Source: Candidatus Binataceae bacterium | GTDB taxonomy: Bacteria > Desulfobacterota > Binatia > Binatales > Binataceae | Direction of reading: 5' to 3' | Length of the DNA: 64,000 nucleotides | Assembly: GCA_035308025.1 (NCBI GenBank) | Contig: DATGHL010000004.1 | Span: 2,678-66,677, forward strand | Shown here: positions 7,180 to 50,535 of the stretch, piece after piece | How positions within the stretch are numbered: position 1 is the first letter of the stretch | Layout: each line of letters starts with the position of its first letter | Position numbers and translations under genes: made by a program | The notes under the pieces: model-generated | Seen by the model: only the letters and a program-made list of their open reading frames with translations | What the model was told of the DNA's origin: nothing | The model's database searches: none

Positions 7180-7270
7180 CTACGCTAGCGCAGCAAAGCG
7201 GAGGGAGCAGGCGAGTCTGACCAAAGGCCGCGCTCGCGGACTCGCCCGCCCCCTGGAGCTGCGTCAAGAT
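7180..7270 (-). repeat. dispersed REP/MITE-like intergenic repeat, copy A (inverted orientation, with internal insertion)
   Basis: '...gagcaggcgagtctg...agctgcgtcaagattctaag' is the reverse complement of the consensus gaTTCTTGACGCAGCTCGCAGACTCGCCTGCTCGCTCCGCGCGG..CCGCGCTCCGCTAGTGT. Confidence 0.6.
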
Positions 7271-7315
7271 TCTAAGTTGAAATCTTTTTAATAGCCTGCT
7301 GTGGGACGGCAGTGC

Positions 7316-8176
7316 ATGAACGACGAATCGATCTTCGCGCATCATACCGCCGTGCTGGACGACGTGCGGCTGCATTACGTAATCGCGGGACATGGCGAGC
7401 CGGTGGTCTTGCTGCATGGATGGCCGCAGACCTGGTTCGAATGGCGCCGGATCATTCCAGCGCTGGCGCAGCGTTATACCGTGATCGCGCCCGACATGCG
7501 CGGGCTGGGGGATTCCTCGCGCCCGGTGAGCGGTTACGACAAGCGCACCGTCGCGGGCGACATCCGTCAACTCGTGCACAAGCTCGGCCTCGAGAAGATT
7601 TTCCTGGTCGGCCACGATTGGGGCGGTCCGGTCGCCTACGCCTATGCCTGCGCCAATCCGTCCGAAGTGCGTAAGCTGGTTATCCTCGATGTCACGATTC
7701 CCGGCGAGGCCTGGGAGAAATTCCCGCAGATCACGCGTCGCGGCGGCATCTGGCATCTCGCATTTCACAGCGTCCGCGACCTGCCCGAGGCGCTCGTGGC
7801 GGGCCGCGAGCGTGCTTACCTGTCGTGGTTCTATCGTTCTGCGGCTTACAATCCCTTGGCGATCACCGAGGCGGAGATCGACGAATACGGCCGCAGCTAT
7901 TCGGCCCCGGGGGCGATGCGCGCCGGTTTCGAATACTATCGCGCGATCTTTGCCGATATCGATCACAACAAGGAAAATGCAAAGACCAAGCTCAAGATGC
8001 CGGTGCTGGCGCTGGGCGGCGAGCGCGGCTTCCGTAACAGTCCGCTGCGCTCCATGCGCGAGCTGGCCGAGGATGTTCGCGGCGGCCTCATCGAGCGCGC
8101 CGGCCATTGGCTCGCCGAAGAACGTCCGGATTATCTGATTGAGCAGCTACTCGCCTTCTTTGCTGAACCCGCCTGA
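7316..8176 (+). CDS. alpha/beta hydrolase (epoxide hydrolase / haloalkane dehalogenase-like)
   Basis: 'VVLLHGWPQTWFEWRRIIPAL', 'GHDWGGPVA' (nucleophile elbow) and a C-terminal 'GHWLAEERP' are hallmarks of the epoxide-hydrolase-like alpha/beta hydrolase fold. Confidence 0.7.
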   Translation: MNDESIFAHHTAVLDDVRLHYVIAGHGEPVVLLHGWPQTWFEWRRIIPALAQRYTVIAPDMRGLGDSSRPVSGYDKRTVAGDIRQLVHKLGLEKIFLVGHDWGGPVAYAYACANPSEVRKLVILDVTIPGEAWEKFPQITRRGGIWHLAFHSVRDLPEALVAGRERAYLSWFYRSAAYNPLAITEAEIDEYGRSYSAPGAMRAGFEYYRAIFADIDHNKENAKTKLKMPVLALGGERGFRNSPLRSMRELAEDVRGGLIERAGHWLAEERPDYLIEQLLAFFAEPA

Positions 8177-8650
8177 GACACGGATCGCCAGTTCCGCACA
8201 GATTTTGTCCGCGATCGCGTGGGCCTCCTCCGAGACTTCTATGACCAGTTCGTCGCGCGGCTCCTCGAGCGTCTCGAACTGGCTACGCAAGAGTTGCGGA
8301 TCAAAGAAATGACGCTGCCGCGCCGTCACGCGTTTCGCGATTAGCTCGTATGATCCCTTCAGGTAGACAAGTTTTACTGCATCCCGATCAATAATTATCT
8401 GATCGCGATACGATTGCTTGAGCGCCGAACAGGCAATGACCGCCGAGCCGCCTCGGGATACTGATCGTTGAATCAGGGCTCGGACTGCCTCGAGCCACGG
8501 CTGACGATCGTCGTCCGTGAGCGGGATTCCGTGCGCCATCTTCTCCCGATTCGCCGCCGTATGAAGGTCATCGGCGTCGTGAAAGGACCAGCCAAGGCGG
8601 CACGCGACCAGCTCGCCGACCGTGGTTTTGCCGCTGCCCGCCACCCCCAT
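8147..8650 (-). CDS. gntK: gluconokinase (GntK/IdnK family), 5' end anomalous
   Basis: 'MGVAGSGKTTVGELVA...FHDADDLH...KM..GIPLTDDDRQPWL' matches gluconate kinases. The conserved beta1 strand 'KILVLMG' is encoded in-frame upstream of the annotated ATG with no canonical start codon. See findings. Confidence 0.65.
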   Translation of the reverse strand: MGVAGSGKTTVGELVACRLGWSFHDADDLHTAANREKMAHGIPLTDDDRQPWLEAVRALIQRSVSRGGSAVIACSALKQSYRDQIIIDRDAVKLVYLKGSYELIAKRVTARQRHFFDPQLLRSQFETLEEPRDELVIEVSEEAHAIADKICAELAIRVSGGFSKEGE

Positions 8651-8656
8651 CAGGAC

Positions 8657-8760
8657 TAAGATTTTTGACGCAGCTCGCAGACTCTTGACCTTGGCCGCGC
8701 GTCGCAGACTCCGCCGGCCCCTGTGCTCGCTGCGCGCGGCAACCGCGCTCCGCTAGTGTC
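8657..8760 (+). repeat. dispersed REP/MITE-like repeat, copy B
   Basis: 'tttgacgcagctcgcagactc...ctgtgctcgctgcgcgcggcaaccgcgctccgctagtgtc'. Sits between the convergent gntK and amidase genes. Confidence 0.65.
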
Positions 8761-10264
8761 ACGCGCCTTTTTGATAGGCGTCGGCGGCGCGCAGCACGGT
8801 CGCGTCGTCGCCGCTCTTCCCGACCAGCATCATGCCAATCGGTAGGCCCTTCGATACCGCGCAGGGCACGTTCATCGCGGGATGGCCCGTGACGTTGAAC
8901 TGCGCCGTACTCGAAACCATCCCGAGAGAGGCGGCCATGTACTCTTCGCGTGAGGCTCCAGGCAGCGGGATGCGCGGTGCCCGGGTCGTCATCGTCGGCA
9001 TCACCAGCAGATCGTAATCGCTCAGGACTTTGTCGTAAGCGGCCTTGAGCGCGCGAGCAAGATTCTGGGCTTTGGCATAGTAATGGCCGTGGTAACGGTC
9101 GCGCATGTAGAGGCCGAGCATCGCAAACAGTTTGGCGCTCTCGGAAACGTCGTCAGGATGGGTCCGCAGACCACGCGCGAAGGCGTCGAGCATCCCGGTT
9201 GCATAGTAACCCTTCCAGTTCGTGCCGAGCCCGCTGCCGGTGATCATTGTGGCGAGCGCGCCCTCACCGGCGATTCCCGTCCAGATCGGTGCGCCATCGC
9301 GATGCCACGGGATGGAGACGCGGTCGAGACGCGCCCCGAGCTTCTCGAAGGCCTGGGCCGCCTCCATCACGGCTTCATCGACCTCTTTTTCAGCACCCGG
9401 CGTGCCAAAGCCCTCCTGCACGAGAGCAAGGCGCAAGCCCTTTGCGTCACCCGTGAGCGCTTTCGTGTAGGCGGCACCCGCCAGATTGGCGCCCTGGCGC
9501 GGGTCGAGGCCGTCCGGCCCGGCGATCGCTTCGAGCATCAGGGCGCAATCCGCGGCGCTACGCGCCATCGGCCCGAGATGATCGAGAGTCATTTCGATCG
9601 GAAAGGCGCCGGTATAAGGCACTAACCCATACGTCGGCTTGAGCCCGTAAAGTCCGCACCAGGCGCTCGGAATACGGATCGATCCGCCTTGATCGCCGCC
9701 GATCGCCATGTCCACCGCGCCCGCCGCGACCAACGCGCCGCTTCCGCTCGACGAGCCGCCGGTGGTGCGCTCACTGTCGTGCGGGTTACGCACCGGACCG
9801 CTGTCCGCAGTGTGGCTGCCGCCCGAAAAACAGAGACTTTCGCAAACCGCCTTGCCCAGAATCGTTCCCCCAGCGTCAAGGATGCGCGTGACCACCGTGG
9901 CATCGATATTCGGCACGAAACCTTCGAGCAACCGCGTTCCATTCATCATCGGAACGCTGGCGACGCAGACGTTGTCTTTGATCGCGAAGGTCTTGCCGGC
10001 GAGCAGCCCGCTCGGCGCACCCTTGATTTCGCAGCGCCAGTACCAGGCGTTATGCACATTCTCCTCGGCCGTCGGCCGCCAGCCGCCATCGCGGGGATAC
10101 TTCACCGGAAGAGTCGGCTCGGCGAGCAGGTCCAAACGGTTCAGCGCCGAGATATAGGGCTCGAGCAGGCGGCGCGACGACTCGGTGTCTTGCGGCGACG
10201 GCCGAAACCCCAGCGTATTGGCGAGTCGGGTCAAATCTTCAGTTGAAGGCGCTTTAACCGGCAT
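8759..10264 (-). CDS. amidase (amidase-signature family)
   Basis: AS-family signature 'GGSSSGSGALVAAGAVDMAIGGDQGGSIRIPSAWCGLYGLKPT' with the Ser-cisSer-Lys context. Confidence 0.75.
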   Translation of the reverse strand: MPVKAPSTEDLTRLANTLGFRPSPQDTESSRRLLEPYISALNRLDLLAEPTLPVKYPRDGGWRPTAEENVHNAWYWRCEIKGAPSGLLAGKTFAIKDNVCVASVPMMNGTRLLEGFVPNIDATVVTRILDAGGTILGKAVCESLCFSGGSHTADSGPVRNPHDSERTTGGSSSGSGALVAAGAVDMAIGGDQGGSIRIPSAWCGLYGLKPTYGLVPYTGAFPIEMTLDHLGPMARSAADCALMLEAIAGPDGLDPRQGANLAGAAYTKALTGDAKGLRLALVQEGFGTPGAEKEVDEAVMEAAQAFEKLGARLDRVSIPWHRDGAPIWTGIAGEGALATMITGSGLGTNWKGYYATGMLDAFARGLRTHPDDVSESAKLFAMLGLYMRDRYHGHYYAKAQNLARALKAAYDKVLSDYDLLVMPTMTTRAPRIPLPGASREEYMAASLGMVSSTAQFNVTGHPAMNVPCAVSKGLPIGMMLVGKSGDDATVLRAADAYQKGA

Positions 10265-10439
10265 CGCTTGTCCTCCCGATCAATCAGGCCAATCAGTCAA
10301 CGTCAGGACTTCAGGGTAAGACTTGGCCGGTGGATTTGTCCAACGCGCGGGCAAGCAGACATTCAACGCTCCGAGGCGCAAATATTCTCAGAGAATGTCT
10401 AATAATCTAAATCATTAGCTAATATGGAAGAGTACTTGC

Positions 10440-10850: not shown

Positions 10851-10867
10851 CGTACTCTCCTGTCGTC

Positions 10868-11769: not shown

Positions 11770-12717
11770 ATGGCCAAATTTGACTTTCCATTAGCGCACG
11801 GACACCTCACGGACAGAGCAACGGGACCTCCCCTTGTTAACGAAATGCCGGGGGCGACGAACGGCGTCAGCGCGCCCGGCGCGATTGACGCGGGAGTGCT
11901 CGGTTCGATTCTGAGTCGGGTGCAAGCGCAGGCGGCGGCCGATCCTTTCAGTAATCCGATCCTGCTCTTCGCGCTGGATTTGATGCTGCGGATTGACCGC
12001 GGCGAAATCAATCTCGACGGTCTGGAGAGTTTGGTGCAGCGCCTCACCGCCGAGGCTTTTGCTGACCGTGCGAAGCGATTGGCGAGTTACCTCGGTGAAG
12101 AGGCGATCGCTGCGAGCGAGTCGGCGATTGCGGAACTGCTGGAGCGTAAGGCGCGCGCGGGCGGCTTTGAAGAATTTTGTACGGCGCTTGCCGCCACCAT
12201 CTTCGGCGTGGTCTTCACGGCCCATCCGACGTTCGCGATTACGCTGGAATTGGCTCGCAGCTTGGCCGAATTGGCAACCGCGCAGACGGTTAGCGGAGTG
12301 CCACTCGATCAGGCGGGACGGGATGCGCGGATGGAGGCGGCGATGCGCCTCGAGCATCGGCCGCCGGCGGAACTGTCGCTCGAGGTCGAGCACGCATGGG
12401 CGACCGAGGCGCTCAATCATGCGCACGACGCACTCGAGATGATGCATCGGATAGCTTTGCGCGTAGCCCGCGAGCGATGGCCGGAGCAATGGACGCGGCT
12501 CGAACCGCGTCTGGTAACGATGGCGTCGTGGGTCGGCTACGACCAGGACGGCCGCACCGATGTGACGTGGACGCGCACGATCGCGGCACGACTGGCGGAC
12601 AAGCTCGCGATGATCGAACGCCATCGGAGCAAAGTCCAAGGGCTGATGCGCGCGGCCGGCGATGATTTCCTGGCGACCTGGAGCCGCTCGGTGCGATGCT
12701 GTCTTCGGCGAGCGTAA
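11770..12717 (+). CDS. phosphoenolpyruvate carboxylase-like protein, N-terminal part (highly divergent)
   Basis: 'VFTAHPTF' corresponds to the PEPC 'VxTAHPTE' motif (the catalytic His region). Overlaps the next ORF by 22 nt in another frame. Confidence 0.45.
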   Translation: MAKFDFPLAHGHLTDRATGPPLVNEMPGATNGVSAPGAIDAGVLGSILSRVQAQAAADPFSNPILLFALDLMLRIDRGEINLDGLESLVQRLTAEAFADRAKRLASYLGEEAIAASESAIAELLERKARAGGFEEFCTALAATIFGVVFTAHPTFAITLELARSLAELATAQTVSGVPLDQAGRDARMEAAMRLEHRPPAELSLEVEHAWATEALNHAHDALEMMHRIALRVARERWPEQWTRLEPRLVTMASWVGYDQDGRTDVTWTRTIAARLADKLAMIERHRSKVQGLMRAAGDDFLATWSRSVRCCLRRA

Positions 12718-14792
12718 CGGTCACCCGCCAAATCAAATCGCTCGCGGCGGCGGAGCGCGACCCGGCGAAAACTGCGGCGTTCGGCCGCGCGATGGTGCGA
12801 GGGCGGGACACCGGACTCATCCAAACAGCGCCGCTCGTAGCGCTAATCGACAAAACATTAGATGCAGCACCAGATGACGAGCAGCGCGAGACGCTGCTAG
12901 TGCTGCGCGCGAGCCTGAAAACGCATGGCCTCGGCCTGGCGCATATTCATGTGCGGCTCAATTCGTCGCAATTGCATAATGCGGCGCGACGGCAGGTGGG
13001 ACTCGAAACGGAGCCGAGCGACCCGGCGAATCGGCGATCGTACTTTAATACCATCAACGATCTGCTCGAGCGGGTGCGTCCGATCGCGATCAGCTTCAAA
13101 TCGTTGACGGTGGAGCGGGCGTCGGCCAAGCGGTTGATGATGACCGTGGCGCAGATCGTCAAGTTTATCGACGGCGAAACGCCGATCCGGTTTTTGATTG
13201 CGGAAACCGAGACCGGCTTCACGCTGCTGGCGGCGCTCTATTATGCGCGGCTGTTCGGTGTCGAGGATCGCGTCGAACTCTCGCCGCTGTTCGAGACCGA
13301 GGAGGCCTTCGAGCGCGGCGAGCGGGTTATCGAGGAGGCGCTGAAGAGCCCGCACTACCGCGCTTATCTGCATCGGCAGGGCCGGCTCGCGGTGCAATTC
13401 GGGTTTTCCGATTCAGGACGATTTATCGGGCAGATGGCGGCGACATTCCGCATCGAGCGGTTGCGCCTGCGGCTTGCGCAATTGGTCGAACGCCATGGGC
13501 TCCACAAGCTCGAAGTTATCCTGTTCAACACGCACGGCGAATCGATCGGTCGCGGCGGGCATCCGCTGACGCTGGCCGATCGCTTGCGTTACGCGGCGCC
13601 GCCGCAGAGCCGGACCGAGTTCGAGCGGCGCGGGATACGTGTGAAGGAGGAGATAAGTTTCCAGGGCGGGGACGGCTATTTACTGTTCCTGACGCCTGCC
13701 GCAGCGACCGCCAGTATGCGGCAGTTTCTCAGTTTCGCGTTCGACGTGAGCGATGAGACCGGCAACTCAGGAATCTTGACGCAGCTCGGAGACTCGCCTG
13801 CTCGCTCCGCGCGGCAACCGCGCTCCACTGGTGATCCGATTTACGCTGCACCGGACTATACGGCGGAATTTTTTGCGACGGTGCAGCAGGAGTTCACCAG
13901 CCTGGTGGACGATCCGGACTACGCGGCGTTGCTGAGCCTGTTCGGCACGAATCTGCTTTACCCAGCCGGGTCACGGCCGGTGTCGCGTGAAACGGAAGAC
14001 TGGCGCAGGCCGACGACGATCGAGCATCCGGCGCAGTTGCGGGCGATCCCGAACAACGCGATCTTGCAGCAACTCGGTTTCATGGCGGTCACGCTGCACG
14101 GAGTCGGGCGCGCGGTCGCGAAAGACCCGGAACTTTTTCAGGTGATGCGTGAACGGTCAGCGCGCTTCCGGCGGGCGTCGCAGATGGTTTCGGCTGCGCT
14201 TGAGCACTCGGAGATCGACGTTTTGAGCGCCTATGTGAATACGCTGAATCCGGCGATGTGGCTGAATGGAGTGGGACGTACACGGCGTCCGGCGCGCGCC
14301 AAGGCCTTGCGCGAACTAGCGCGGCTGACCGGACGGCTGGATCGGTATGACCGGCTGGCGCGGCTGGTGCGGCGCCTGCAGTCGGATCAGTTGTGGCTGC
14401 TCGAGGCGATCGCGCCGGTCGAGACCACGCAACGGCGACGTCTGCTTCTGCTCCACGGAATCCGCGTGGCGCTGATCCAGCGGATCTGCCTGCTGGCGAC
14501 CGAGATCCCGAATTTCAGTCCGCAGCTCGGGGTGACCCGCGACGACATCCTGGAGCGGATCCTCGAGCTGGACGTGCCGCGCGCGATCGAGCGGCTGCGC
14601 CTGATTTTCCCGCGCGAGGATGGCCGGGCCGATGCAGACGGCGATTTCGGCGAAATCTCACAGTATCAGCCGGAGCCCTCGCTCTCCTACGCCGTCGAGC
14701 ACGACGCCTTGTTCGCTCCGATGTTGCGGCTGTTTGATTTGGCGCGGCGCATCGGAACGGCGATCACTTACGAGATTGGCGCGATCGGTTAG
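12696..14792 (+). CDS. phosphoenolpyruvate carboxylase-like protein, catalytic core (divergent), with an in-frame REP insertion
   Basis: 'VQFGFSDSGRFIGQ' matches the PEPC 'MxGYSDSxKDxG' motif. About 35 aa later 'LFNTHGESIGRGGHP' matches 'FHGRGGSIGRGGxP'. The motif order and spacing are the same as in bacterial PEPC. Confidence 0.5.
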   Translation: MLSSASVTVTRQIKSLAAAERDPAKTAAFGRAMVRGRDTGLIQTAPLVALIDKTLDAAPDDEQRETLLVLRASLKTHGLGLAHIHVRLNSSQLHNAARRQVGLETEPSDPANRRSYFNTINDLLERVRPIAISFKSLTVERASAKRLMMTVAQIVKFIDGETPIRFLIAETETGFTLLAALYYARLFGVEDRVELSPLFETEEAFERGERVIEEALKSPHYRAYLHRQGRLAVQFGFSDSGRFIGQMAATFRIERLRLRLAQLVERHGLHKLEVILFNTHGESIGRGGHPLTLADRLRYAAPPQSRTEFERRGIRVKEEISFQGGDGYLLFLTPAAATASMRQFLSFAFDVSDETGNSGILTQLGDSPARSARQPRSTGDPIYAAPDYTAEFFATVQQEFTSLVDDPDYAALLSLFGTNLLYPAGSRPVSRETEDWRRPTTIEHPAQLRAIPNNAILQQLGFMAVTLHGVGRAVAKDPELFQVMRERSARFRRASQMVSAALEHSEIDVLSAYVNTLNPAMWLNGVGRTRRPARAKALRELARLTGRLDRYDRLARLVRRLQSDQLWLLEAIAPVETTQRRRLLLLHGIRVALIQRICLLATEIPNFSPQLGVTRDDILERILELDVPRAIERLRLIFPREDGRADADGDFGEISQYQPEPSLSYAVEHDALFAPMLRLFDLARRIGTAITYEIGAIG
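13772..13834 (+). repeat. dispersed REP/MITE-like repeat, copy C, in-frame inside a coding sequence
   Basis: 'aatcttgacgcagctcggagactcgcctgctcgctccgcgcggcaaccgcgctccactggtga' translates to '...ILTQLGDSPARSARQPRSTG...' within the ORF. Confidence 0.6.
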
Positions 14793-31596: not shown

Positions 31597-31662
31597 ATCT
31601 GATAAACTCCTGGCTGCAAAGGTGATCGCGCAAACCTTGCGTCGAAGCCCGCCAATCCCGTA

Positions 31663-32235: not shown

Positions 32236-32269
32236 ACCCGTCGGCAGCACGTGCTAAGCTGGTGATCCG

Positions 32270-32998: not shown

Positions 32999-33064
32999 GC
33001 CGACACTTTTCTCGCTGAGGCGAATCCTCGTACGGAAGCGATCGCTTGGAGCGACGGGGTAAAT

Positions 33065-36446: not shown

Positions 36447-36666
36447 CGGGAGGTCAACAACAAGATTTCACATCTCATAGTGGCGCCGAAAGAACGGAAT
36501 TTTTTCAGATTCTCTCGCCATCCTTTTTCTAAGCAAGCGCACAGGCACGTGGCGATGGGGGCAATTATCCCCTTGATGGCGGTGAGCCGTCATGTCAGGG
36601 TGGCAGCAATCGATACGCTTTTACGGCGGCTCCTCCGCTGTCGGCGTGGGAAAGAGCTAGCCACGA

Positions 36667-37401
36667 TTGCGCGAATACGAGCTCAATTGCTCGATGTATC
36701 TATACGCGAGCAGGGCTGATGCGAATCGGGGCGTACAGACTGGCGGAAGCGGATTCTTCTTCGGGATTCCGATGAACGAGTACTCCAGCCATATCTACGC
36801 CGTTAGTAATTGGCACGTCGTGCAAAGCCATCCGGTCATTCGCGTAAACACACATTACGGGGATTCACTTGTCTTAGAATTAAGAACCAGCGATTGGTTT
36901 CGGCATCCAGACGGTGAGACCGACCTCGCCGTTGCACCTGTGGGGCATCCATTCTGGGCAGACCTTAATGTGCTTCTTCTTGGTCGTGAAACCCTTCTTT
37001 CTCCGGAGATCATCTCTCGATTTAAGATCGGTGTCGGCGACGACTTGTTTGTCGTTGGTCGCTTCATAGATCGTGATGGCGTACAGCGCAATCAACCAAC
37101 AGTTCGATTTGGCATGATCGCGCAACTACCAATCCCTCACCAACCAATCCGAACCGAGGTTGGATACCAGGATGCTTTTCTAGCCGAAATTCGATCTGTC
37201 TCAGGATTTAGCGGGTCTCCGATATTCGCACTACTACCGCCCCATCGCGACACCTCCCTTTCCAGAGAGGAACGGCTCAAAGCCTTTAGCGATCTGGACG
37301 ATAACGGCTTACAGCGAAACAGAACGGTTCTCATGGGAATTGACTGCGGGCATATGCAATATCCAGAACCGGATGCTGTTTTCGCAGAAAGTGCGCGATG
37401 A
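36667..37401 (+). CDS. trypsin-like serine peptidase (S1/chymotrypsin fold, Trypsin_2-like)
   Basis: Catalytic triad context: 'SNWHVV' (His), 'GETDLAV' (Asp), 'SGFSGSPIF' (Ser). No signal peptide is evident. Confidence 0.55.
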   Translation: MREYELNCSMYLYASRADANRGVQTGGSGFFFGIPMNEYSSHIYAVSNWHVVQSHPVIRVNTHYGDSLVLELRTSDWFRHPDGETDLAVAPVGHPFWADLNVLLLGRETLLSPEIISRFKIGVGDDLFVVGRFIDRDGVQRNQPTVRFGMIAQLPIPHQPIRTEVGYQDAFLAEIRSVSGFSGSPIFALLPPHRDTSLSREERLKAFSDLDDNGLQRNRTVLMGIDCGHMQYPEPDAVFAESAR

Positions 37402-37456
37402 GCACGGCGGCAAACGGTTGCGCCCAACGAAACTATGGGCGAACGTAAACACTGGA

Positions 37457-37714
37457 ATGGCTATCGTGATCGGCGCATGGAAGCTGGACGAGTTGCTCAA
37501 CAACCCAGTGTTGGTAGAAATGCGAGAAAAAGAAAAAGCCGCGGCAAAGAAATACACAAAGCTGGATTCATCCACCCGGCCCCGCTTGCAAAAAACGTTA
37601 GCTCCGAACGCTGCGGATCGGATTGATATTCCTATTCCGACTGAACGCGAGGTGTTGGACGTATTTAAGAAAGCCACGCGGAAGCGGCCATCTAGGCAGA
37701 AACCTTCTTCGTGA
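37457..37714 (+). CDS. small hypothetical protein (basic C-terminus); 3' end truncated by or overlapping the IS1595 end
   Basis: ORF 37340..37714 in another frame, overlapping the protease stop. Internal Met at 37457. Confidence 0.2.
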   Translation: MAIVIGAWKLDELLNNPVLVEMREKEKAAAKKYTKLDSSTRPRLQKTLAPNAADRIDIPIPTEREVLDVFKKATRKRPSRQKPSS

Positions 37715-38660
37715 TCTGCTTCGTGAGCGCGTCGAACATATTGTGTCGTCCAAGGTTCGGTCGGCGATTGAACCGAAAAGCGTACTCGTTCAGATAGCTT
37801 TGCGGATAATGCGAACCGACATTGTGATAGACACCACGAATCCCGTTTTTTATGAGGCTCCAGAAGCCCTCCATGGTGTTCACGTGTGCATCGCCCGAGA
37901 CATAGACCTTGGTCGCAAGATGGACGCGCTTGTGCTGTAGCCAAGTGGCTCCAGCGGATTATAGACCGCGTATTCGTCGGTAAAGACCATGCTCTTCGGC
38001 ATTATTCGCTCAGTCACGTGCGGAAGCAGGGTTGCAGCTTGGGTGGTTCGGAACGACCTTTGCCACAACTCTGCCCTTGCGCTCTACCATGCCGAAGACG
38101 GCGGTCTTGCCGACCCCGCCGGTGCCGAGATGTTTCCGCTTGTTGGCGTGTTTGTTCTTTTCCAACCCGCCGAATGCGCTTTCGTCCATCTCAATCTTGC
38201 CAGACAGTTTTGGCCCGTCATCTTCATTCAGCATCGAACGAATCTGTTTGCACATACGCCACGCGCATTTGTAGGTAACGCCGATTTCCCGCTCAAGCTG
38301 CTTGGCGCTAATCCCGCATCGAGTAGAGGCCATCAAGTACATGGCGTAAAACCAGAGTTTCAGCGAAGTAGCCGAATCCTGAAAGATCGTCCCGCTCATT
38401 GGGTGTTCGTGATGACCGCAATTCTGGCACGAGTAGGAAGGTCGCTTGCTGTCGCGATGATGCTTTGTGACGGCTTTGCATTTGGGGCAGAAGATGCCAT
38501 CGGGATAGAGCCATTCGACGAGTTTCTGAAGACAAGCTGCATCGTCTGGATAATTTCGCTCGAAATCCATGAGCGAGTAAGTACTGTCGGACGCCCCGGA
38601 ACGTATCGGCTTATTGCGGTTGACCTTGCTCATGTCGAACATAGTACTAAAGGCGCGCAC
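37692..38660 (-). mobile_element. IS1595-family insertion sequence with frameshifted transposase
   Basis: ORF 38010..38660 has an N-terminal zinc ribbon 'CPKCKAVTKHH...CQNCGHHE' and a DDE region. Continuation 'VFTDEYAVYNPL' (37880..38068) and C-terminus 'FWSLIK...NEYAFRFNRR' (37692..37883) are each in a different frame. Confidence 0.7.
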
Positions 38661-38695
38661 CTACGTCAAAGGGATAGTTACAAAAGGACCCGGTC

Positions 38696-38929
38696 GTGAC
38701 CGCGAGGAGGGTCGCCACCAAAACCGTGAAGAGCGCACGGCGGCCGCCGCGGGCGGCATCAGGTTCAGACCCAGGGAAACTGGTTTGCCGTTACTGCGGC
38801 AGTGATGATCTCGCCCCGTCGTTCATCAAGCGCCGCGACGCCCGCTGTCGCACCTGTTTCAAACAACGTTACGGGTCGGCAACGCGTGCCAAGTCAGCGA
38901 AGTCTCCTAAGGCCAACGCCGCTAAATAG
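38696..38929 (+). CDS. small basic zinc-ribbon protein (questionable)
   Basis: 'CRYCGSDDL...CRTC' four-Cys arrangement in a Lys/Arg-rich 77 aa ORF with a non-ATG start. Overlaps the presumed IS1595 end. Confidence 0.2.
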   Translation: MTARRVATKTVKSARRPPRAASGSDPGKLVCRYCGSDDLAPSFIKRRDARCRTCFKQRYGSATRAKSAKSPKANAAK

Positions 38930-39563
38930 TTCTAGCCCCATCGCACGGACCTGGCGCCGGCCTCCGATCAGAAGGCCGGCGCCAGTCTACTTGGCGTGCA
39001 GGGTCGGCCGCTTGGTCTCACGTTGGTCGACCAACGCAGTCCAGCAATTTGGAATCAAAAGGCAACAACCAAGGCCCCTTTTTAGAAGGAAGCCGCTCGC
39101 CAGCGTAATTCACTGGGACAAGTGGAGCGATTGACCGGATTTAACGGCAACACGGATTGCGCAGCGGGCAAGCTCTCAGCGGGTATCGAAAGCATCACTG
39201 GATCGTGCGGACCGACGAAATAATCACCAGCGCTGGTATCCCTTATAGCCCGCGCAATCGTAAGGCCCCAGCTGGCAAGTGGACGCTTGAAGGGAAAACT
39301 CCTGCTCTGGGTTGCTATCCACCCAGCCGCAGCGACCCTATCTCAGTTGCGTTACGACAAACGGGAAGGACGTGGCGCTTCGGCCGACCCGCCGAAATCA
39401 CCTGAAGGGACCCGGCGTCACTGCCGGCAGAGATCAATCGCCAAAGTCGCTCGCCGGGCGCAGAGTTCGGGACCCGCTCCGGGTTCTTTGCGGGCGAATA
39501 AGCCCGCATAAATGCGAAGATTTCGAGCGTTTTCACGGAGAATCTACAAATCCTGAGACTGGG

Positions 39564-39655
39564 TGGCGGAGAGGGGGGGATTCGAACCCCCGAGACCCTT
39601 GCGAGCCTACACGCGTTCCAGGCGTGCGCCTTAAACCGGGCTCGGCCACCTCTCC
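39564..39655 (-). tRNA. tRNA-Ser (anticodon GGA), type II with long variable arm, CCA encoded
   Basis: Reverse complement reads GGAGAGG-UG-GCCGAGCCCGGUUUAAGGC-G-CACGC-CUGGAAC-GCGUG-UAGGCUCGCAAGGGUCUC-GGGGG-UUCGAAU-CCCCC-CCUCUCC-G-CCA. All stems pair and the discriminator is G. The 3' end faces the low-GC island. Confidence 0.9.
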
Positions 39656-39735
39656 GCAATGGGGCTTCAGTATGCCATCGGATGAATTCGACTTGCCAGT
39701 ATGCCAACGCGGAGCGACCGCACGCTGCGGATAAG

Positions 39736-40452
39736 TTACCAGTCAATCGATTCACGATCGCGGAAAAAACCCCCGCTCGGGCCGCGATCGGGGAGCGTGG
39801 CCAGCCACACCGCGGTCTCTGCGCCCTCTTCCACCGAACGCGGCGCGCCCACACCGCCCATCTCGGTGCGCACCCATCCGGGTGACATCGCGTTGACCAG
39901 TATATTGGTTCCGCGCAGGTCGGCAGCCATCACCCGCGTCATCGCGTTGAGCGCAGCCTTCGACACGCGATACGAGGGATAGCCGCCGGCGTCGAGTCCG
40001 TCGCCGTGTGTGCTCATATCCGTCGAAACATTGACGATACGGCCGTAACGATGCGCCCGCATCAGCGGGATCGCAGCCTGGCTGAGGAGCAGCGCGCCAG
40101 TCAGATTCACGGCGAGGGTCTGACGAAACGTCGCCGCACCGATATCGAGTGAGGTGTGGGCGCCGTCGAGGTAGATGCCGGCGTTGTTGACGAGGATATC
40201 CCAGCGCCCCAGCTCGGCCTCGGCGTAACGCTGAAAGCGCGCGATGCTCGAATCGTCGGCGACGTCGAGGGGATGGAAAACGATCTCGCCGGCGGACTTC
40301 TGCGCCGACTTGGTAAGTTGCGCGCAAGCGGCGGCGCCTTTGACCGCGTCGCGCGCCGTCAGCACAACCTTGAGATCCAAAGCGGCGAGCTGGCGGCAGA
40401 TCTCCAGCCCGATACCGCGATTCCCACCGGTCACTACCGCAAGTTTTTTCAC
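39736..40452 (-). CDS. short-chain dehydrogenase/reductase (SDR family)
   Basis: 'VVTGGNRGIGLEI' (TGxxxGxG), 'NNAGI', catalytic YxxxK. GTG start. Confidence 0.85.
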   Translation of the reverse strand: MKKLAVVTGGNRGIGLEICRQLAALDLKVVLTARDAVKGAAACAQLTKSAQKSAGEIVFHPLDVADDSSIARFQRYAEAELGRWDILVNNAGIYLDGAHTSLDIGAATFRQTLAVNLTGALLLSQAAIPLMRAHRYGRIVNVSTDMSTHGDGLDAGGYPSYRVSKAALNAMTRVMAADLRGTNILVNAMSPGWVRTEMGGVGAPRSVEEGAETAVWLATLPDRGPSGGFFRDRESIDW

Positions 40453-40494: not shown

Positions 40495-40588
40495 CATTTT
40501 TCGACGCAGCTCGTAGACTCCTGAGCTCGGCCGCGCCTCGCAGACTCGTGTGCTCGCTCCGCGCGGCGGCCGTGCTTTGCTAGCGTGT
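40495..40588 (+). repeat. dispersed REP/MITE-like repeat, copy D
   Basis: 'ttcgacgcagctcgtagactcctgagctcggccgcgcctcgcagactcgtgtgctcgctccgcgcggcggccgtgctttgctagcgtgtc'. Confidence 0.6.
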
Positions 40589-40999: not shown

Positions 41000-41860
41000 C
41001 TAATTCTGCGCGCAAAAAAGAATCGTCTCGTTCGAGGTGCGCAGTTTGCCGTCGGGCTGGACGAAGGCGCGAGCGGCGTTGGTCACTGCCGCGATAATCT
41101 GGTCGCGCAACGCCGGCGTTTGCCGTTCGAGCAGGGCGCGAAACGGCGCCGCGACGTCGCTGCGGAACTGCGCGAGCGCTTCGGGCGCGGCGAACTCGAA
41201 AACTACCTGCAGGCGTTTCACTTGCACGTCTTTGAAGCCCGCCGCCGCAAGCGCGTGAGTGAGAATCGACGGGTCGGCAAGCCGCAGCGGTTCGAGCGCG
41301 TCGAACGGCGGCGAGGGCAGGCCCGCGAGCTTGCGCACTTGATCGGTGCCCAGCGTGATCATCGGGACCTTGTCGCGCGTCGACCAGACCGCGGTCGCGA
41401 GGCGGGTGCCGGGTTTCATCCGGCTGCGGATACCGGTCAAGGCGCGATCGATGTCGGGCATGAACATAAAGCCCCAGCGGCAGACCACGGCGTCGAAGTC
41501 GCGCTCGCTGAGCGCGAGCGCTTCGGCGTCGCTTTCCTTGAACTCAAGGTTGTTGAGGCCAAGGGCCGCGGCGCGCTCCCGCGCGATCGCGAGCATTCCG
41601 GCGGATTGATCGGTGGCGATCACGCGGCCCGTCGCGCCGACCCGTCGCGCCGCGGTCACCGCCGGCTCACCGGTGCCGGTGGCGATATCGAGCACGCGGG
41701 CGCCGGGCCTCACGCCCGCCAGTTCGACGAGGCGGTCGCTGACGTGCTGTGCCGCCTGCTCGAAGATCGGCCACCATTTTTTCCAGCCTGCGGCGGCGGC
41801 GTCCCAATCGCGTTTCTGCTCGCTCTTCAAGCGTGTAAAATCAGCGTTCTGATCAGTCAT
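41000..41860 (-). CDS. class I SAM-dependent methyltransferase
   Basis: 'ARVLDIATGTGEPAV' motif I. About 286 aa. Confidence 0.7.
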   Translation of the reverse strand: MTDQNADFTRLKSEQKRDWDAAAAGWKKWWPIFEQAAQHVSDRLVELAGVRPGARVLDIATGTGEPAVTAARRVGATGRVIATDQSAGMLAIARERAAALGLNNLEFKESDAEALALSERDFDAVVCRWGFMFMPDIDRALTGIRSRMKPGTRLATAVWSTRDKVPMITLGTDQVRKLAGLPSPPFDALEPLRLADPSILTHALAAAGFKDVQVKRLQVVFEFAAPEALAQFRSDVAAPFRALLERQTPALRDQIIAAVTNAARAFVQPDGKLRTSNETILFCAQN

Positions 41861-46246: not shown

Positions 46247-46594
46247 ATGCAATATATGCTGCTGATCTACCACAACGAAAAGAACCGGATGAGCCCGCCC
46301 GACGAATCCAAGCTGCTGAATGAATACATGGTATTCACGCAGGACATCGTGAAGAATGGCAAATTCAAGGCGGGCGACCGGCTCGAACCCACCAGCAACG
46401 CGACGACGGTGCAGGTGCGCAACGGCAAGACTGTGACCACCGATGGCCCCTTTGCCGAGACCAAGGAACAACTCGGCGGCTACTACCTGGTCGAGGCGAA
46501 GGACCTCGATGAGGCGCTCGCGATCGCCGCGCGCATCCCGGGCGCGAAGCACGGCTCGATCGAAGTGCGCCCAATCATGCAGATGAATCGTTAG
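46247..46594 (+). CDS. YciI-family (YCII-related) protein
   Basis: 115 aa. 'TDGPFAETKEQLGGYYLVEAKDLDEA' is the DGPF/YciI motif region. Confidence 0.7.
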   Translation: MQYMLLIYHNEKNRMSPPDESKLLNEYMVFTQDIVKNGKFKAGDRLEPTSNATTVQVRNGKTVTTDGPFAETKEQLGGYYLVEAKDLDEALAIAARIPGAKHGSIEVRPIMQMNR

Positions 46595-46607
46595 GCAAGC
46601 CGCGACG

Positions 46608-46680
46608 ACACGCTAGCGGAGCGCTCCGGCGCGGAGCGAGCAGGCGAGTCTGCGAGCTGCGTCAAGGATTCTAGAATGGC
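46608..46680 (-). repeat. dispersed REP/MITE-like repeat, copy F (inverted)
   Basis: 'gctagcggagcgctccggcgcggagcgagcaggcgagtctgcgagctgcgtcaaggattctag' is the reverse complement of the consensus. Lies between YciI and the sigma factor. Confidence 0.65.
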
Positions 46681-46713
46681 GGCGATGCGATGCGTTAGGA
46701 TCGTATCGCCGCC

Positions 46714-47955
46714 ATGACTTCCGACGTACTGGAACAGCTTTATCGCGATGAGTTTGGCCGCATCGTCGCGTCGCTCATTCATTTGATCGGCGACTTCGAT
46801 CTCGCCGAGGATGCGGCGCAGGAGGCCTTCACCACGGCCGTTGAGCAGTGGCGGCGCGAGGGCGTACCGCAAAATCCGCGCGCCTGGATCGTCGGCACGG
46901 CGCGACATAAAGCGATCGACCGGATTCGGCGTCAGGTGCGTTTCGGTGAACGTCGCGCGGAGCTAATCCGGATGCTTGAGCAGGAGAGCGCAGAGGCCGA
47001 AGGTTCGCCGGCAAAAGGCGCGCCCGCCGACGAGCGCTTGCGGCTCATCTTCACCTGCTGCCATCCGGCATTGGCGAGTGAGGCGCAGGTCGCGCTGGCG
47101 CTGCGCACGCTCTGCGGCCTCACCACCGAGGAGATCGCGCGCGCTTTCCTGGTTCCGGCCGCGACAATGGCGCAGCGGCTGGTGCGCGCCAAGCGCAAGA
47201 TTCAAGCGGCGCGGATTCCTTATGAGGTCCCGAGTGCGGCGCTTTTGCCGGAGCGGCTCGACGCCGTGCTCGCGGTCATCTACCTGGTCTTCAATGAGGG
47301 CTACGCGGCGACGCATGGTGACACGGTCGTGCGCGCGGATCTGTGCAGCGAAGCAATCCGCCTGGGACGCGTCGTGAGCGATTTGATGCCCGAGCGGAGT
47401 GAGGCGCGCGGCTTGCTCGCGCTGATGCTGATCCAGGACTCGCGGCGGTCGGCGCGGCTCAATTCTGACGGCGAAATCGTACTGCTCGAGGAGCAGGATC
47501 GCACGCGCTGGCATAGCGAGCAGATTCGCGAAGGGTTGGCGCTCGTGCAGGCCGCGATGGCCGACGCGCCGGCCGGGCCCTACACGATCCAGGCCGCGAT
47601 CGCGTCGGTACATGCGCGGGCGGTGCGCGCCGCCGACACGAACTGGCGGGAAATCGAAGCGCTGTACGCTCATCTGATGCGGTTACGACCGTCGCCGGTG
47701 ATCGAACTCAATCACGCAGTGGCCGTTGCGATGGCGTCAGGACCGGCCGATGGCCTGCGCATGATCGAAGCGCTGCGGGCGCGGGAAGATCTCGAGACGT
47801 ACCATCTGATGTGGGCGGCGCACGCGGACCTCCTCAGGCGCCTCGGGCGTCGGGCGGAGGCGGCGGAATCGTACCGTCGCGCGCTGGCGCTGGTCAGCGC
47901 CGGACCCGAACGGCGCTTCCTCGCGCGTCGCTTGGCGGCAGTCGAGAGCCAATAG
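46714..47955 (+). CDS. ECF-type sigma-70 family factor with long C-terminal extension
   Basis: Sigma2 region '[18 protein letters not shown]', then sigma4 '[35 protein letters not shown]'. The C-terminal extension is about 200 aa. Confidence 0.75.
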
Positions 47956-47981
47956 CTTCCAACGAACGAATGTTAAATTAT

Positions 47982-48066
47982 GCCGCGCGTCGCGGACTCG
48001 GATTCCGACGCAGCTCGCAGACTCGCCTGCTCGTTCCGGCGCGCAGCGCGCCTCCACTAGTGAATT
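47982..48066 (+). repeat. dispersed REP/MITE-like repeat, copy G
   Basis: 'ccgacgcagctcgcagactcgcctgctcgttccggcgcgcagcgcgcctccactagtgaat', preceded by 'gcgcgtcgcggactcg' as in copy A. Confidence 0.65.
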
Positions 48067-48083
48067 TCGATAAGATTGTCCTT

Positions 48084-50444
48084 ATGGCAAGTTCGGTCGG
48101 TAATGAAACGATCGCGGCGCCGGTAATCCCAGAGGCGCGCGTCAAAGACCCGGTCTGCGGGATGACGGTTAATCCGGCGACGGCGAAGTGGCGTCACGAT
48201 CGAGAAGGTGCAACTTACTATTTCTGCGGCGTCGGGTGCATGAACAAGTTCATCGCCGACCCGCTGAAATATACCGGCGCGCAATCAGCTTCGTCAGCCC
48301 ACGATCATGCGCAAACGCCGGTTGCCGGAGTCGGCGCCGAGTACTTCTGCCCGATGGATCCGGAGGTCGTGAGCGATCGCCCGGGCACCTGCCCCAAGTG
48401 CGGGATGGCGTTGCAGGCGCGCGTCAGCCTCGATGCCGAGCCGCCGCCCGATCCCGAGCTAATCGACTTCACGCGGCGCTTCTGGGTCAACGCGGTGCTG
48501 GCGAGCGTGATCGTCGCGCTCGGGATGGCGGATCTGGTTCCTGGGATGCCGCTCCATCGCGCGTTTGGCGCCGGCCTGCTCAACTGGATCGAATTCGCGC
48601 TCGCGACGCCGGTGGTGCTGTGGGGCGGAGCGCCGTTTTTCGTTCGCGGCGCGCGCTCGATCGCGAATCGCCACCTCAATATGTTCACGCTGATTGCGCT
48701 CGGCATTGGAGTTGCCTACGGCGCGAGCGTGGCCGCGACGATCGCGCCGGCGGCGTTTCCCGCGGGATGGAATGGGTCGATGGCCGGCGCGCCAGTCTAT
48801 TACGAAGCGGCTGCCGCGATCGTCGCGCTGGTGTTGCTGGGCCAGGTGCTCGAACTGCGCGCGCGCGGGCGCACCGGCGGCTTGATCCGCGGCTTGCTGG
48901 GCATCGCGCCGAAGACCGCCCGCGTCGTGCGGCCCGACGGGCGCGAAGAAGATCTCGCGTTGGCACAAGTCGCGGTTGACGACCTGATTCGGGTGCGGCC
49001 AGGCGAAAAGGTTCCGGTCGATGGCTTGGTCGTCGAGGGCCGGAGCGCGCTGGACGAATCGATGATCACCGGCGAGCCGCTGCCGGTCGAGAAGGCACAG
49101 GGCGATCATGTGATTGGCGGGACGCTCAATGGCGCGGGCGGCTTTCTGATGCGCGCCGAACGCGTTGGCCGCGACACGATGCTCGCGCAGATCGTGCGGA
49201 CGGTCGCCGAAGCGCAAAGTAGCCGCGCGCCGATCCAGCGAATCGCCGACACGGTCTCCGGCTATTTTGTCCCCGCCGTCGTCGCCGCCGCCGCAGTGAC
49301 TTTTTGCGTCTGGGCTCTGCTCGGTCCGGCGCCGCGTTTCCCGCACGCGATCCTCGCCGCAGTTGCGGTGCTGATTATTGCCTGCCCCTGCGCGCTCGGC
49401 CTGGCGACTCCGATGGCGGTAATGGTCGCGAGCGGGCGCGGCGCATCTGCAGGCGTGCTGGTGCGCAACGCCGAAGCGCTCGAACGACTCGCGACAGTTG
49501 ACACGCTGGCGCTCGACAAGACCGGGACGCTGACGATGGGTCGGCCGGCGGTGGTCACGGTCGAGGCCGCCGACGGCGTCAGCGTCGACGAAATGCTCCG
49601 GCTGGCGGCGAGTCTCGAGCGTTCGAGCGAGCATCCGCTGGCGGCCGCGGTGACGGCGGCCGCCGCGACTCGCGGTCTGATGCTGAGTCCCGCCAGCGAT
49701 TTCGCCGCGACACCGGGGCAGGGCGCGCGCGGTGTCGTTGAGGGACATGTGATCGCGGTCGGCAGCGAGCGCTTCCTCGGCGCCGAGGTCGTTGCCGGAT
49801 TTGCCGAGCGCGCCGCCGCGCTGCGCGCGCGCGAAACGGTTATCTTTGTCGCGATCGATGGAAAGATCGCCGGCCTGCTCGGGTTGGCAGACCCGATCAA
49901 ACCAGCAACGCCGCAGGCGCTGCGCGCGCTGCACGACGCCGGCATCCGCGTCGTGATGATCACCGGCGACAACCGCGTCACCGCCGCGGCCGTTGCACGC
50001 GAACTCGCGATCGACGAAGTTCACGCCGAAGTCGCGCCGGTGGACAAGGCGCGCGTGATACGCGAACTGCGCGCGGCGGGAAGAATCGTCGCGATGGCCG
50101 GCGACGGCATCAACGACGCGCCGGCGTTGGTGACGGCCACGGTGGGAATCGCGATGGGTACCGGCACCGACCTCGCAATGCAGAGCGCGGGGATCACGCT
50201 GGTCAAAGGTGATCTGATGGGGATCGTGCGCGCGCGCGACTTGAGCCGGGCGTTCATCCGCAACGTCCGGCAAAATCTCTTCTTTGCCTTCGCCTACAAT
50301 GCGCTGGGAATTCCAGTCGCGGCCGGCGTGCTCTACCCGGCCTTCGGACTGCTGCTCAGCCCGATGATCGCCAGCGCCGCGATGAGCGCGAGCTCCGTCT
50401 CGGTGATCGCGAATGCCCTAAGGCTGCGTCGCGTCGCGCTGTGA
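48084..50444 (+). CDS. copA: copper/silver-translocating P1B-type ATPase with N-terminal YHS and zinc-ribbon-like metal-binding domains
   Basis: YHS '[35 protein letters not shown]', second domain '[24 protein letters not shown]', TM CPC motif '[11 protein letters not shown]', 'DKTGTLT', 'GDGINDAP'. Start at the internal Met (ATG 48084). Confidence 0.85.
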
Positions 50445-50470
50445 TCGTACCGTAAGCTGCGCGCAACGCA

Positions 50471-50535
50471 GATTCTTGACGCAGCTGCGGACTCGCCTGC
50501 TCGCTACGCGCGGAGGCCGCGCTCCGCTAGTGTGT
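50471..50535 (+). repeat. dispersed REP/MITE-like repeat, copy H
   Basis: 'gattcttgacgcagctgcggactcgcctgctcgctacgcgcggaggccgcgctccgctagtgtg'. Confidence 0.65.

Follow-up and report, generated by a model that had tools for sequence, protein, structure and literature searches.

A short mosaic repeat of Candidatus Binataceae, dispersed among genomes, placed against stop codons and inserted in frame in conserved protein genes

A 64,000-nt stretch of a Candidatus Binataceae genome (assembly GCA_035308025.1, contig DATGHL010000004.1, positions 2,678 to 66,677; hereafter the window) contains a short element which recurs seven times, at a density of about one copy per 9 kb. The locus raises the question of what kind of element this is and how it reaches and keeps its sites. 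In the initial annotation it was described as a REP/MITE-like repeat (repetitive extragenic palindromic sequence or miniature inverted-repeat transposable element) with a possible role as transcript stabiliser or terminator. Our study has shown that the copies belong to a previously undescribed family of short non-coding, non-autonomous repeats, found almost only in Candidatus Binataceae (phylum Binatota), and we consider it likely that they represent a new trans-mobilised mosaic repeat, comparable to the RPE (Rickettsia palindromic element), BOX and REP elements, whose copies have been filtered by selection. The observation of a dispersed, high-copy repeat family with a small hairpin is confirmed and extended, whereas its earlier interpretation is partly supported, the labels MITE, REP and terminator being imprecise; an in-frame coding insertion (copy 3), a strong orientation bias and a CTAG end that meets or supplies the upstream stop codon had been overlooked. 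Binatota is a widespread phylum of soil and sediment, of which no cultured member is known to us.

The repeat is not confined to the window. A scan of 185,579 species-representative public genomes with the query GCAGCTCGNAGACTCGCCTGCTC has identified at least 120 matching loci in at least 14 assemblies and, among the matches listed, 12 assemblies are labelled Binataceae or 'proteobacterium' and 2 are labelled Acidobacteriota or Acidiferrales. This genome-wide scan had been set beforehand as the test between a family and a local duplication, and the latter fails because of the at least 120 further loci. An nhmmer profile built from four copies recovered 197-211 copies in the listed loci (878 kb) and the window, a covariance model made later recovered 179 copies in the first 100 loci (725 kb), and one metagenome-assembled genome carries at least 65 copies. 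Both models find the same seven places in the window, with boundaries within a few bases of those first reported; together with the repeat search they bear out the seven listed copies and the truncated piece. With up to 3 mismatches allowed, the head GACGCAGCTCGCAGACTC has 6 matches in the window against 0.15 expected and the core CAGACTCGCCTGCTCGCTCCGC has 6 against 0.00 expected. Searches for relatives were negative: Rfam 15 gave no gathering-threshold match to the repeat in the window, and at E values up to 5 over positions 46400-50700, which hold three copies, it gave 3 weak matches, none on a copy save for a 2-nt end overlap. No match was found in plasmid and phage collections, and the literature on Binatota repeats yielded no description. 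We place the family as a new addition among the small interspersed mosaic repeats; its coding insertions are RPE-like, and no such repeats had been described in the phylum before.

The source name of the homologues of the phosphoenolpyruvate carboxylase (PEPC) and extracytoplasmic function (ECF) sigma factor of the window is 'Candidatus Binataceae'. The sigma factor of the window is 100% identical to one recorded under 'MAG TPA: Candidatus Binataceae bacterium'. The window DNA is present in identical form in the assemblies JGI 3300005541 and ENA ERZ27279683, which may share the same reads; as the 698-aa PEPC product has no exact-sequence record, its locus was looked up through the neighbouring major facilitator superfamily (MFS) gene. 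In a third assembly of the region (L128, Logan SRR5579863) the contig stops inside the PEPC copy at about window position 13800, which is typical of a repeat-induced assembly break.

The single unit is 60-66 bp long, and mosaics of up to about 100 bp carry modules that are duplicated, inverted or arranged head-to-tail. On the forward strand the order is an AT-richer left arm, (R-A-C-T-N-A-R)GATTCTTG or (ACTTAG)GATTCTTG, a 26-nt core, ACGCAGCTCGCAGACTCGCCTGCTCG, with three CTCGC motifs at 8-nt spacing, then CTCCG with the hairpin, and the terminus CTCCGCTAG(YG). Since the loci were chosen by an exact core match, conservation of the core was judged on the 73 by-catch copies lying outside the search pattern, and not on orthologous pairs; in these the core is 80-99% identical to the consensus, against 30-75% for the arm and hairpin columns. 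The hairpin has a 6-bp GC stem and a 3-nt loop, and its sequence varies among the copies (GCGCGG/CCGCGC, which is the palindrome initially noticed, GCGCCG/CGGCGC, GGCGCG/CGCGCC, GCACCG/CGGTGC and others). Pairing holds for 94% of the hairpin cells in 54 ungapped copies, as compared to 9-53% in slid registers; double compensatory changes are present in four of the six pairs (76 cells), and the observed covariation was matched in none of 500 shuffles. Minimum-free-energy z-scores of the consensus on both strands were not significant in comparison to shuffles, and only copy 1 stood out. An extended outer stem (CTCGC/GCTAG with G-U pairs) has not been adopted, as its changes are one-sided transitions with only 4 double changes, and it also competes with an alternative ACGCAGC/GCTAGCGT pairing.

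Several variants recur across the genomes. The tail may be short, CTCCGCCTKCGGCTCCGCTAG, or of a 'type-B' kind; in copies 2, 4 and 6 half of the core is duplicated at a 27-nt period; and in a 'hairpin-head' build, which copy 1 shares with at least 12 other loci, an inverted partial core makes a long stem. The 'second module' seen earlier in some copies does exist, and it has turned out to repeat part of the core's first half, at 27-nt spacing in copy 4. Head-to-tail arrays with a period of typically 55-70 nt or so are also found, and neighbouring copies less than 200 nt apart are direct in 39 cases and inverted in 6.

Some further features of the units can be recorded here. GACTC is present in the core of 158 of 160 copies, and GATTC or GAATC is found in the left arm of 62 of the 160, compared with 6% of random 18-nt windows, GANTC sites being present in every unit (for example at window positions 46646-46663 and 48007-48024). 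GANTC is the CcrM-type methylation motif. In the JBOHWF assembly (L027 1020-1120, L035 100-160 and 2650-2745, L094 7340-7440, L087, L047 and L075), a single metagenome-assembled genome, several units are nested between the arms of a second inverted repeat, CCCTCACCCTTGGTCCC...GGGACAAGGGCGAGGG, and others between GGGATTCC... and ...GGAATGACAG arms; these represent either insertion into other palindromic repeats or composite elements. The second inverted repeat is absent from the window. Some copies are flanked on both sides by direct repeats of 13-27 nt with unrelated sequences, such as gcccgaaccagttctaggcgc (L083 1690-1790, L113 6450-6570, L054 4130-4230, L077 6960-7080), which suggests tandem duplication of the element along with neighbouring sequence and not target-site duplication.

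Filled and empty orthologous sites both exist, which shows that copies have been gained at new sites. At the PEPC site, copy 3 accounts for 22 extra residues between ...DETGN and DPIYAAPDY..., which are found in the window only and are absent from the 68 closest orthologues. The empty allele reads GGCAAC|GATGCG (L121) and the filled one GGCAAC-(TCAGGAATC...CCACTGGT, 66 nt)-GATCCG, with unambiguous boundaries; comparison of the two revealed no target-site duplication, and the termini of the 66-nt insert are not inverted repeats. The spacer between the YciI and ECF sigma genes is 119 nt long in the window and 55-60 nt in an 89%-identical orthologue (L122) and a related pair (L123), giving an insert of about 64 nt, CTAGAATCC...CCGCTAG, without duplication to within 2 nt. 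A third filled and empty pair is provided by GltB (L013 filled, L045 empty). In another pair, L108 (4389-4460) holds a full element and L069 (6209-6224) only the 10-nt ATCCTAGCAA, resembling both termini joined at CTAG, which could be an excision footprint or a deletion between terminal CTAGs. Copies are also retained at orthologous sites across species (copy 2 with L105, L110 with L061, and L051 with L056 and L029). A fixed target motif is not favoured; the left flanks are enriched in RAC/RAT followed by T-N-A-R, but are heterogeneous.

The machinery for such movement was searched for in 942 kb, comprising the window and the listed loci. Two regular-expression screens of 4,406 open frames of at least 90 aa gave no match to the HUH...Y-x2-N/Q motif, and no full-length autonomous insertion sequence (IS) related to the repeat was found there. 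The proteins that recur as neighbours form no transposase cluster, only large metabolic families (luciferase-like monooxygenases, acyl-CoA dehydrogenases, short-chain dehydrogenases/reductases (SDRs), CoA-transferases, MFS transporters, P450s and others). The presence/absence polymorphism, the mosaics and arrays, the family-wide spread, the lack of a nearby transposase and the survival of in-frame copies together lead to the reading of a non-autonomous mobile repeat.

Copies within protein genes were screened by requiring long open reading frames (ORFs) with coding signal on both sides, and they make up about 15 of 197 copies (about 7%, by a crude gene caller), seven being verified in Pfam domains or against orthologues. 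Besides the PEPC copy, in-frame copies lie inside the Pfam domains of MnmG/GidA (L001), GlnD (L036, two tandem units, 51 aa), D-Tyr-tRNA deacylase (Dtd; L100, several inserts), a DUF1501 protein (L055), an Eco57I-type methylase (L014) and the amidotransferase domain of GltB (L013). The MnmG of L001 aligns end to end with E. coli MnmG (3cp2) but for a clean 20-residue gap at the element, and the Dtd of L100 aligns with 1jke in two blocks with 27 extra residues between them; this one Dtd is enlarged by at least 27 residues, and probably by about 75. One of the three forward frames and two of the three reverse frames of the element are open, giving peptides such as ...TQLADSPAR... (forward) and ...SRRVCELR... 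(reverse), and the verified coding copies (2 sense, 5 antisense) approximate the ratio predicted by the open frames alone.

The PEPC gene that hosts copy 3 (11770-14792, + strand) is collinear with orthologues of 955-965 aa, with 78-83% identity to the closest. A 1-nt deletion near 12675 (ggcgac-ctgg), at a site which is not a homopolymer, divides it into two frames (11770-12717 and 12696-14792), and the same split into 698 and 290 aa is called in the JGI and ENA assemblies. The gene may be a recent pseudogene, or the split may be a shared assembly error if both assemblies derive from the same reads. In the AlphaFold model of the window ORF the insert (residues 358-379) is a coil with pLDDT below 50 between modelled helices. 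Conserved proteins are in this way inflated by the repeat, a second, independent case of the RPE phenomenon, in which in-frame repeats are tolerated in essential enzymes, here in a free-living lineage.

Outside the genes, the placement of the copies follows the direction of the neighbouring genes. Between co-directional genes as called by the crude caller, 65 copies are antisense and 17 are sense (p = 9e-8), and between long, high-scoring co-directional genes from six genomes the ratio becomes 25 to 0, a bias which by our estimate exceeds that given by replication co-orientation. Of 16 pairs compared within loci of 8 kb, the element turns round together with the genes in 10 and keeps its orientation in 6, so that the rule appears to be linked to transcription and not to replication. 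A replication-linked orientation is disfavoured by these pairs, and the window holds no skew switch. In the preferred orientation the G-rich strand is in the mRNA and the element starts as (TRA-CRC-)TAG-CGGAG followed by the hairpin, the CTAG end pointing to the upstream gene. The preference for sites just after stop codons reported earlier is reproduced in the stringent set, with a median of 1 nt from stop to element and 64 nt from element to the next start. At 57 stop junctions, the TAG of the element itself is the stop codon in 15, and in another 16 a TGA or TAA leads directly into the CTAG-type terminus (11 of them as CRCTAG, i.e. TRA-CRC-TAG). Spacers between divergent genes hold 17 of about 124 classified copies. 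These orientation and stop-codon rules provide a natural data set on filtering, through Rho or selection at the mRNA level, versus targeting by the transposition mechanism.

The observations can be accommodated by a mechanism in which a single enzyme, encoded elsewhere in the genome, would copy the element, a strand-specific HUH-type enzyme (RAYT or IS200/IS605-like) being the most economical candidate in view of the missing duplication and the subterminal hairpin. Selection would then leave only harmless copies: those at the extreme 3' ends of genes, often with the element's own TAG as the stop codon, those oriented so as to leave co-transcription of the next gene undisturbed, and those in frame in disordered loops. 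In untranslated mRNA, Rho could plausibly load on the C-rich forward strand. It can also be speculated that the stop, GC hairpin, G-rich core and AU-rich tail shield the 3' end of the upstream mRNA, as REP does. The near-neutral orientation of the translated copies (2 versus 5, small numbers) weakly favours a filter that would act on untranslated RNA.

Several points weigh against this explanation. The term 'trans-mobilised' would rest on the absence of a cis-encoded enzyme from 942 kb of loci rather than from whole genomes. The strong conservation of the core and the near-absolute orientation may exceed purely selfish needs and indicate a host-level function, and compensatory changes in the hairpin can also arise without selection, through template switching in a palindrome. 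Only two insertion sites have been resolved, PEPC exactly and the YciI-ECF spacer to about 2 nt, and their empty-site left flanks, CAAC| and CATT|, have no clear common motif; the L108/L069 pair does not fit a simple clean insertion. The frameshift in PEPC leaves the tolerance of the copy 3 insert by a working enzyme putative. The gene calls in the loci came from our own codon-usage caller, which is imperfect and mis-called the YciI/ECF pair of the window.

Among the other explanations, the one with most to recommend it, which we hold as possible yet tentative, is a host-selected RNA module at the 3' end of the upstream cistron, built from one or more stop codons, a GC hairpin and a tract rich in G, and compatible with mobility. 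Such a module would protect the mRNA from 3' exonucleases like REP or would prevent Rho loading, its C-rich strand being the Rho-loading site; this strand would then be tolerated only in the antisense orientation, or at places that gain from being insulated, such as the Cu-ATPase gene with copies 6 and 7 on its two sides. It is favoured by the 25 to 0 and 65 to 17 biases, which follow gene direction and are not fixed per locus, by the contact with the stop codon at a median of 1 nt and the recurrence of TRA-CRC-TAG, by the conserved core of the non-selected copies and the covarying hairpin, and by insertions kept at orthologous sites in different species; the coding copies, with 2 sense and 5 antisense, or about what the open frames predict, fit a bias confined to untranslated RNA. 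A role as transcript stabiliser is conceivable. However, the folding energies are no better than those of shuffles apart from the small hairpin and copy 1, a 3'-end role is impossible for the 17 copies between divergent genes, in-frame coding copies and tandem arrays are hard to fit with a 3'-UTR function, and the outer pairing shows one-sided changes from G-C to G-U, which suit the strand that is usually not in the mRNA. The module also has no U-tract and no promoter or terminator signal. Behind the hairpin stands CTCCGCTAG or, read in the other sense, GGAGCGAGC, with no T-run; the hairpin is therefore not an intrinsic terminator, and this part of the initial annotation does not hold. Promoter and terminator consensus scans stayed at chance level, with 10 sites where 8.8 were expected and 3 where 7.5 were expected, only copy 7 being flagged. 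A more far-reaching version, which we regard as quite improbable, takes the 26-nt core (three CTCGC and GANTC) as a recognition sequence under host-level selection across Binataceae, and takes the antisense orientation and stop docking as the result of transcription- or translation-coupled insertion without duplication, or of a domesticated 'end-of-gene cassette' with stops, a protective hairpin and a strand-specific Rho/antisense insulator.

The remaining alternatives concern the origin of the repeat. An element of REP/REPIN type or derived from IS200/IS605 (PATE-like), which a HUH tyrosine transposase (a RAYT or TnpA) would move in single-stranded form by recognising the subterminal hairpin and cutting beside a short motif, would explain the lack of long inverted termini and of target duplication, the preservation of the hairpin as structure and not sequence, the high copy number in a vertically related clade and the left flanks that are often RAC|T or RAT|T. 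REPs carry a GTAG tetranucleotide near the hairpin foot, and the palindromic CTAG of the repeat lies, formally in the same way, a few bases from the foot of its hairpin; the copy 1 subfamily, with two inverted cores in a long hairpin, is REPIN-like. We nevertheless find this reading unlikely, as a conserved non-palindromic core, absent from REPs, fills more than half of the unit, adjacent copies are direct rather than inverted (39 versus 6), no HUH...Y-x2-N/Q ORF of at least 90 aa occurs in the 942 kb of element-rich DNA, and the proteins that recur beside the copies are metabolic paralogues of an ordinary kind. In known IS200/IS605 elements the lagging-strand template sets the orientation, whereas the orientation of the repeat tracks transcription and not a fixed replication direction, and about 7% of its copies are intragenic by the crude caller (seven verified). 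A classic MITE, i.e. an internally deleted DDE-type IS with terminal inverted repeats and target-site duplications, is highly improbable. Its size, copy number and intergenic bias would fit, as would the imperfect complementarity of the head ACGCAGC to the tail GCT(A)GCGT and the CTAG or YYAG at both ends, but on the left the insert runs past these 7 complementary nucleotides, neither of the two sites that can be compared (PEPC and YciI-ECF) has a duplication, and the sole IS of the window, of IS21 type (1124-2965), has no similarity to the repeat; the 'MITE-like' label has been dropped on these grounds. The chance of a local duplication or assembly artefact limited to this contig is practically negligible: it would be suggested by 7 copies clustered in 64 kb if there were nothing else, but is opposed by about 200 copies in at least 14 assemblies, by the identical sequence in two public assemblies and by the third assembly, the contig of which breaks off within the PEPC copy as a real repeat in the genome would cause it to. 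The trans-mobilised mosaic repeat filtered by selection is preferred over all of these.

In comparison to the known repeat systems, the repeat appears by analogy to be closest to RPE in behaviour, to BOX in build, and to REP/REPIN in its hairpin, absence of duplication and persistence. RPEs are short repeats inserted in frame in unrelated conserved protein genes as well as at intergenic sites (PMC10969869). The likeness lies in this behaviour, a peptide being added without loss of frame (here in PEPC, MnmG, GlnD, Dtd, GltB, the DUF1501 protein and the Eco57I-type methylase), and the mobilising enzyme is not known in either system. Unit length, structure and host set the two apart: RPEs are about 100-150 bp, largely palindromic and hosted by an obligate intracellular alphaproteobacterium, whereas the Binataceae unit measures 60-66 bp and joins a hairpin of only 6 bp to a long core that is not palindromic, in a free-living soil phylum, and only about 7% of its copies lie in genes (crude calls; seven verified). 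To our knowledge, neither the orientation rule nor the stop-codon abutment has been described for RPEs. The BOX elements of Streptococcus pneumoniae are likewise modular, intergenic, non-autonomous mosaics with an internal module in variable tandem number. They are boxA-boxB(n)-boxC mosaics with no known dedicated transposase. The module sequences and sizes differ, BOX ends pair in a long stem whereas the present repeat has only the small covarying hairpin, and its coding insertions and orientation bias are not BOX hallmarks. BOX has been counted among the MITE-like repeats (PMC10969869).

The 'REP/BIME-type' classification of the initial annotation holds as a resemblance. As REP, REPIN and RAYT are defined (PMC3116915, PMC3337134), the repeat shares with REP, BIME and REPIN a high copy number, a mostly extragenic position downstream of genes, a structural hairpin, the absence of duplication and vertical persistence (PMC3116915, PMC3337134, PMC5581495), and its copy 1 subfamily forms a long hairpin as REPINs do. 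The classification does not extend to the rest of the element: only 15 of about 64 nt form the covarying hairpin and the best-conserved 26 nt are non-palindromic, whereas REP is an imperfect palindrome of 20-40 nt; the neighbours are direct and tandem (39 versus 6) and not inverted doublets at fixed spacing; and there are intragenic in-frame copies and no RAYT-like ORF in the sampled 942 kb. With the IS200/IS605 (PATE-like) elements it shares the absence of inverted repeats and duplication, but it has only one covarying hairpin, near the right end, and its left flanks favour RAC/RAT, yet the resolved targets are CAAC| and CATT|. Elements of that kind are characterised by subterminal hairpins at both ends and by insertion 3' of a fixed tetra- or pentanucleotide. 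Mycobacterial interspersed repetitive units (MIRUs) are also similar, being units of 40-100 bp, often tandem, in co-directional spacers, with flanking start or stop codons overlapping the repeat. MIRUs carry small ORFs that couple translation between cistrons, whereas the start downstream of the Binataceae element is at a median of 64 nt, and the covarying hairpin and the copies within genes are further differences. An integron attC origin has been rejected, as the copies are scattered in both orientations among housekeeping genes and no GTTRRRY ends are visible.

Turning to the individual copies of the window, all seven were delimited by nhmmer and the covariance model. Copy 1 (7181-7272, - strand) belongs to the 'hairpin-head' subfamily, with an inverted partial core (GGCGAGTC...GACTCGCC) between head and core that gives the long stem (fold z = -2.47), a build shared with at least 12 other loci; it begins about 5 nt past the stop of a glutathione S-transferase-like gene (6397-7176) and is antisense to both flanking + strand genes. 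Copy 2 (8660-8760, + strand), a mosaic with duplicated half-core, touches with its CTAGTGT end the TGA stop of an amidase gene (8759-10264, - strand) at 0 nt, reading TGA-CAC-TAG in the mRNA sense; it is antisense to both flanking - strand genes and an orthologous copy is present in L105. Copy 3 (13772-13837, + strand) is the 66-nt in-frame insertion SGILTQLGDSPARSARQPRSTG in the PEPC gene, its exact ends being given by comparison with orthologues. Copy 4 (40496-40588, + strand), a mosaic with duplicated head at 27-nt spacing, lies between a methyltransferase gene (41000-41860, - strand) and an SDR gene (39736-40452, - strand), antisense to both and on the upstream side of the latter, the start of which is 46 nt away.

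The remaining three copies are arranged around the YciI, ECF sigma and Cu-ATPase genes as initially claimed, with one in each intergenic gap and one after the ATPase stop. Copy 5 (46607-46671, - strand) is a single unit in the YciI/ECF sigma spacer, antisense to both genes and about 10-13 nt from the nearest stop. Copy 6 (47982-48068, + strand), a partial head (47982-47999) followed by a full unit, is in the minority sense orientation, 27 nt past the ECF sigma stop (47955) and ahead of the Cu-ATPase start (48084). Copy 7 (50471-50537, + strand) is a single unit, also in the sense orientation, 27 nt past the Cu-ATPase stop (50444) and 53 nt ahead of a nitrile hydratase beta gene (50590). The antisense rule is kept by copies 1, 2, 4 and 5, copies 6 and 7 around the Cu-ATPase gene are exceptions and copy 3 is coding. 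Five copies (1, 2, 5, 6 and 7), and not six as had been counted, lie within 40 bp of a stop, copy 4 being upstream of a start and copy 3 within a coding region.

Two incomplete copies were also found. The truncated piece reported earlier is a true relic (59218-59243, + strand), with left arm and first half of the core only, GATTCTT-N8-GCTCGCAGACT, identified by a pattern search (1 match, 0 expected by chance) about 30 nt past the stop of gene 57954-59186. A tail-only fragment, absent from the initial annotation, with hairpin and CCAGTGT terminus (57894-57930, - strand; covariance model E = 2.8e-4) provides, in the mRNA sense, the last 10 or so codons and the TAG stop of gene 56997-57923, and the homologue of this gene in L039 has a different C-terminus.

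The public gene calls start the Cu-ATPase at 47970 (824 aa), running in frame through copy 6, which shows that repeat copies can wrongly lengthen N-terminal gene calls; from the ATG at 48084 (786 aa) the full Pfam domain set is kept. The repeat distorts gene annotation in this way, and some C-termini and stops are element-derived. It also breaks short-read assemblies, one public contig ending in the PEPC copy, and for Binataceae contigs the covariance model or the 26-nt core can be used as a lineage marker. The genes at 46247-47955 encode a protein with a YCII domain together with an ECF sigma factor that carries DUF6596 and a C-terminal TPR; the pair is conserved in L122 and L123 and presumably resembles the ECF42-type arrangement. 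This pair is unrelated to the repeat except as host of copies 5 and 6.

Some other features of the window are also worth recording. The IS21-family element (1124-2965, - strand) encodes IstA (rve integrase and helix-turn-helix; 2159-2965) and IstB (1124-1576), the latter seemingly truncated or frameshifted and overlapped by an ORF at 1489-1908. Beside it, a luciferase-like monooxygenase gene (184-1092, + strand) covers only profile positions 11-175 of 314 and may be interrupted. A gathering-level Rfam match to a group II intron (RF00029, 45 bits, 71 nt) is present at 3035-3105 (- strand), also beside the IS21 element; no reverse-transcriptase ORF was identified near it, and the ORF at 3909-6305 (+ strand) has no Pfam match. 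Finally, the region of about 31600-39700 has a G+C content of 0.54-0.59, as compared to 0.62-0.68 elsewhere, with a weak codon-usage score and no repeat copies; this block ends at a tRNA-Ser(gga) gene (39564-39655, - strand) and may be an integrated island.

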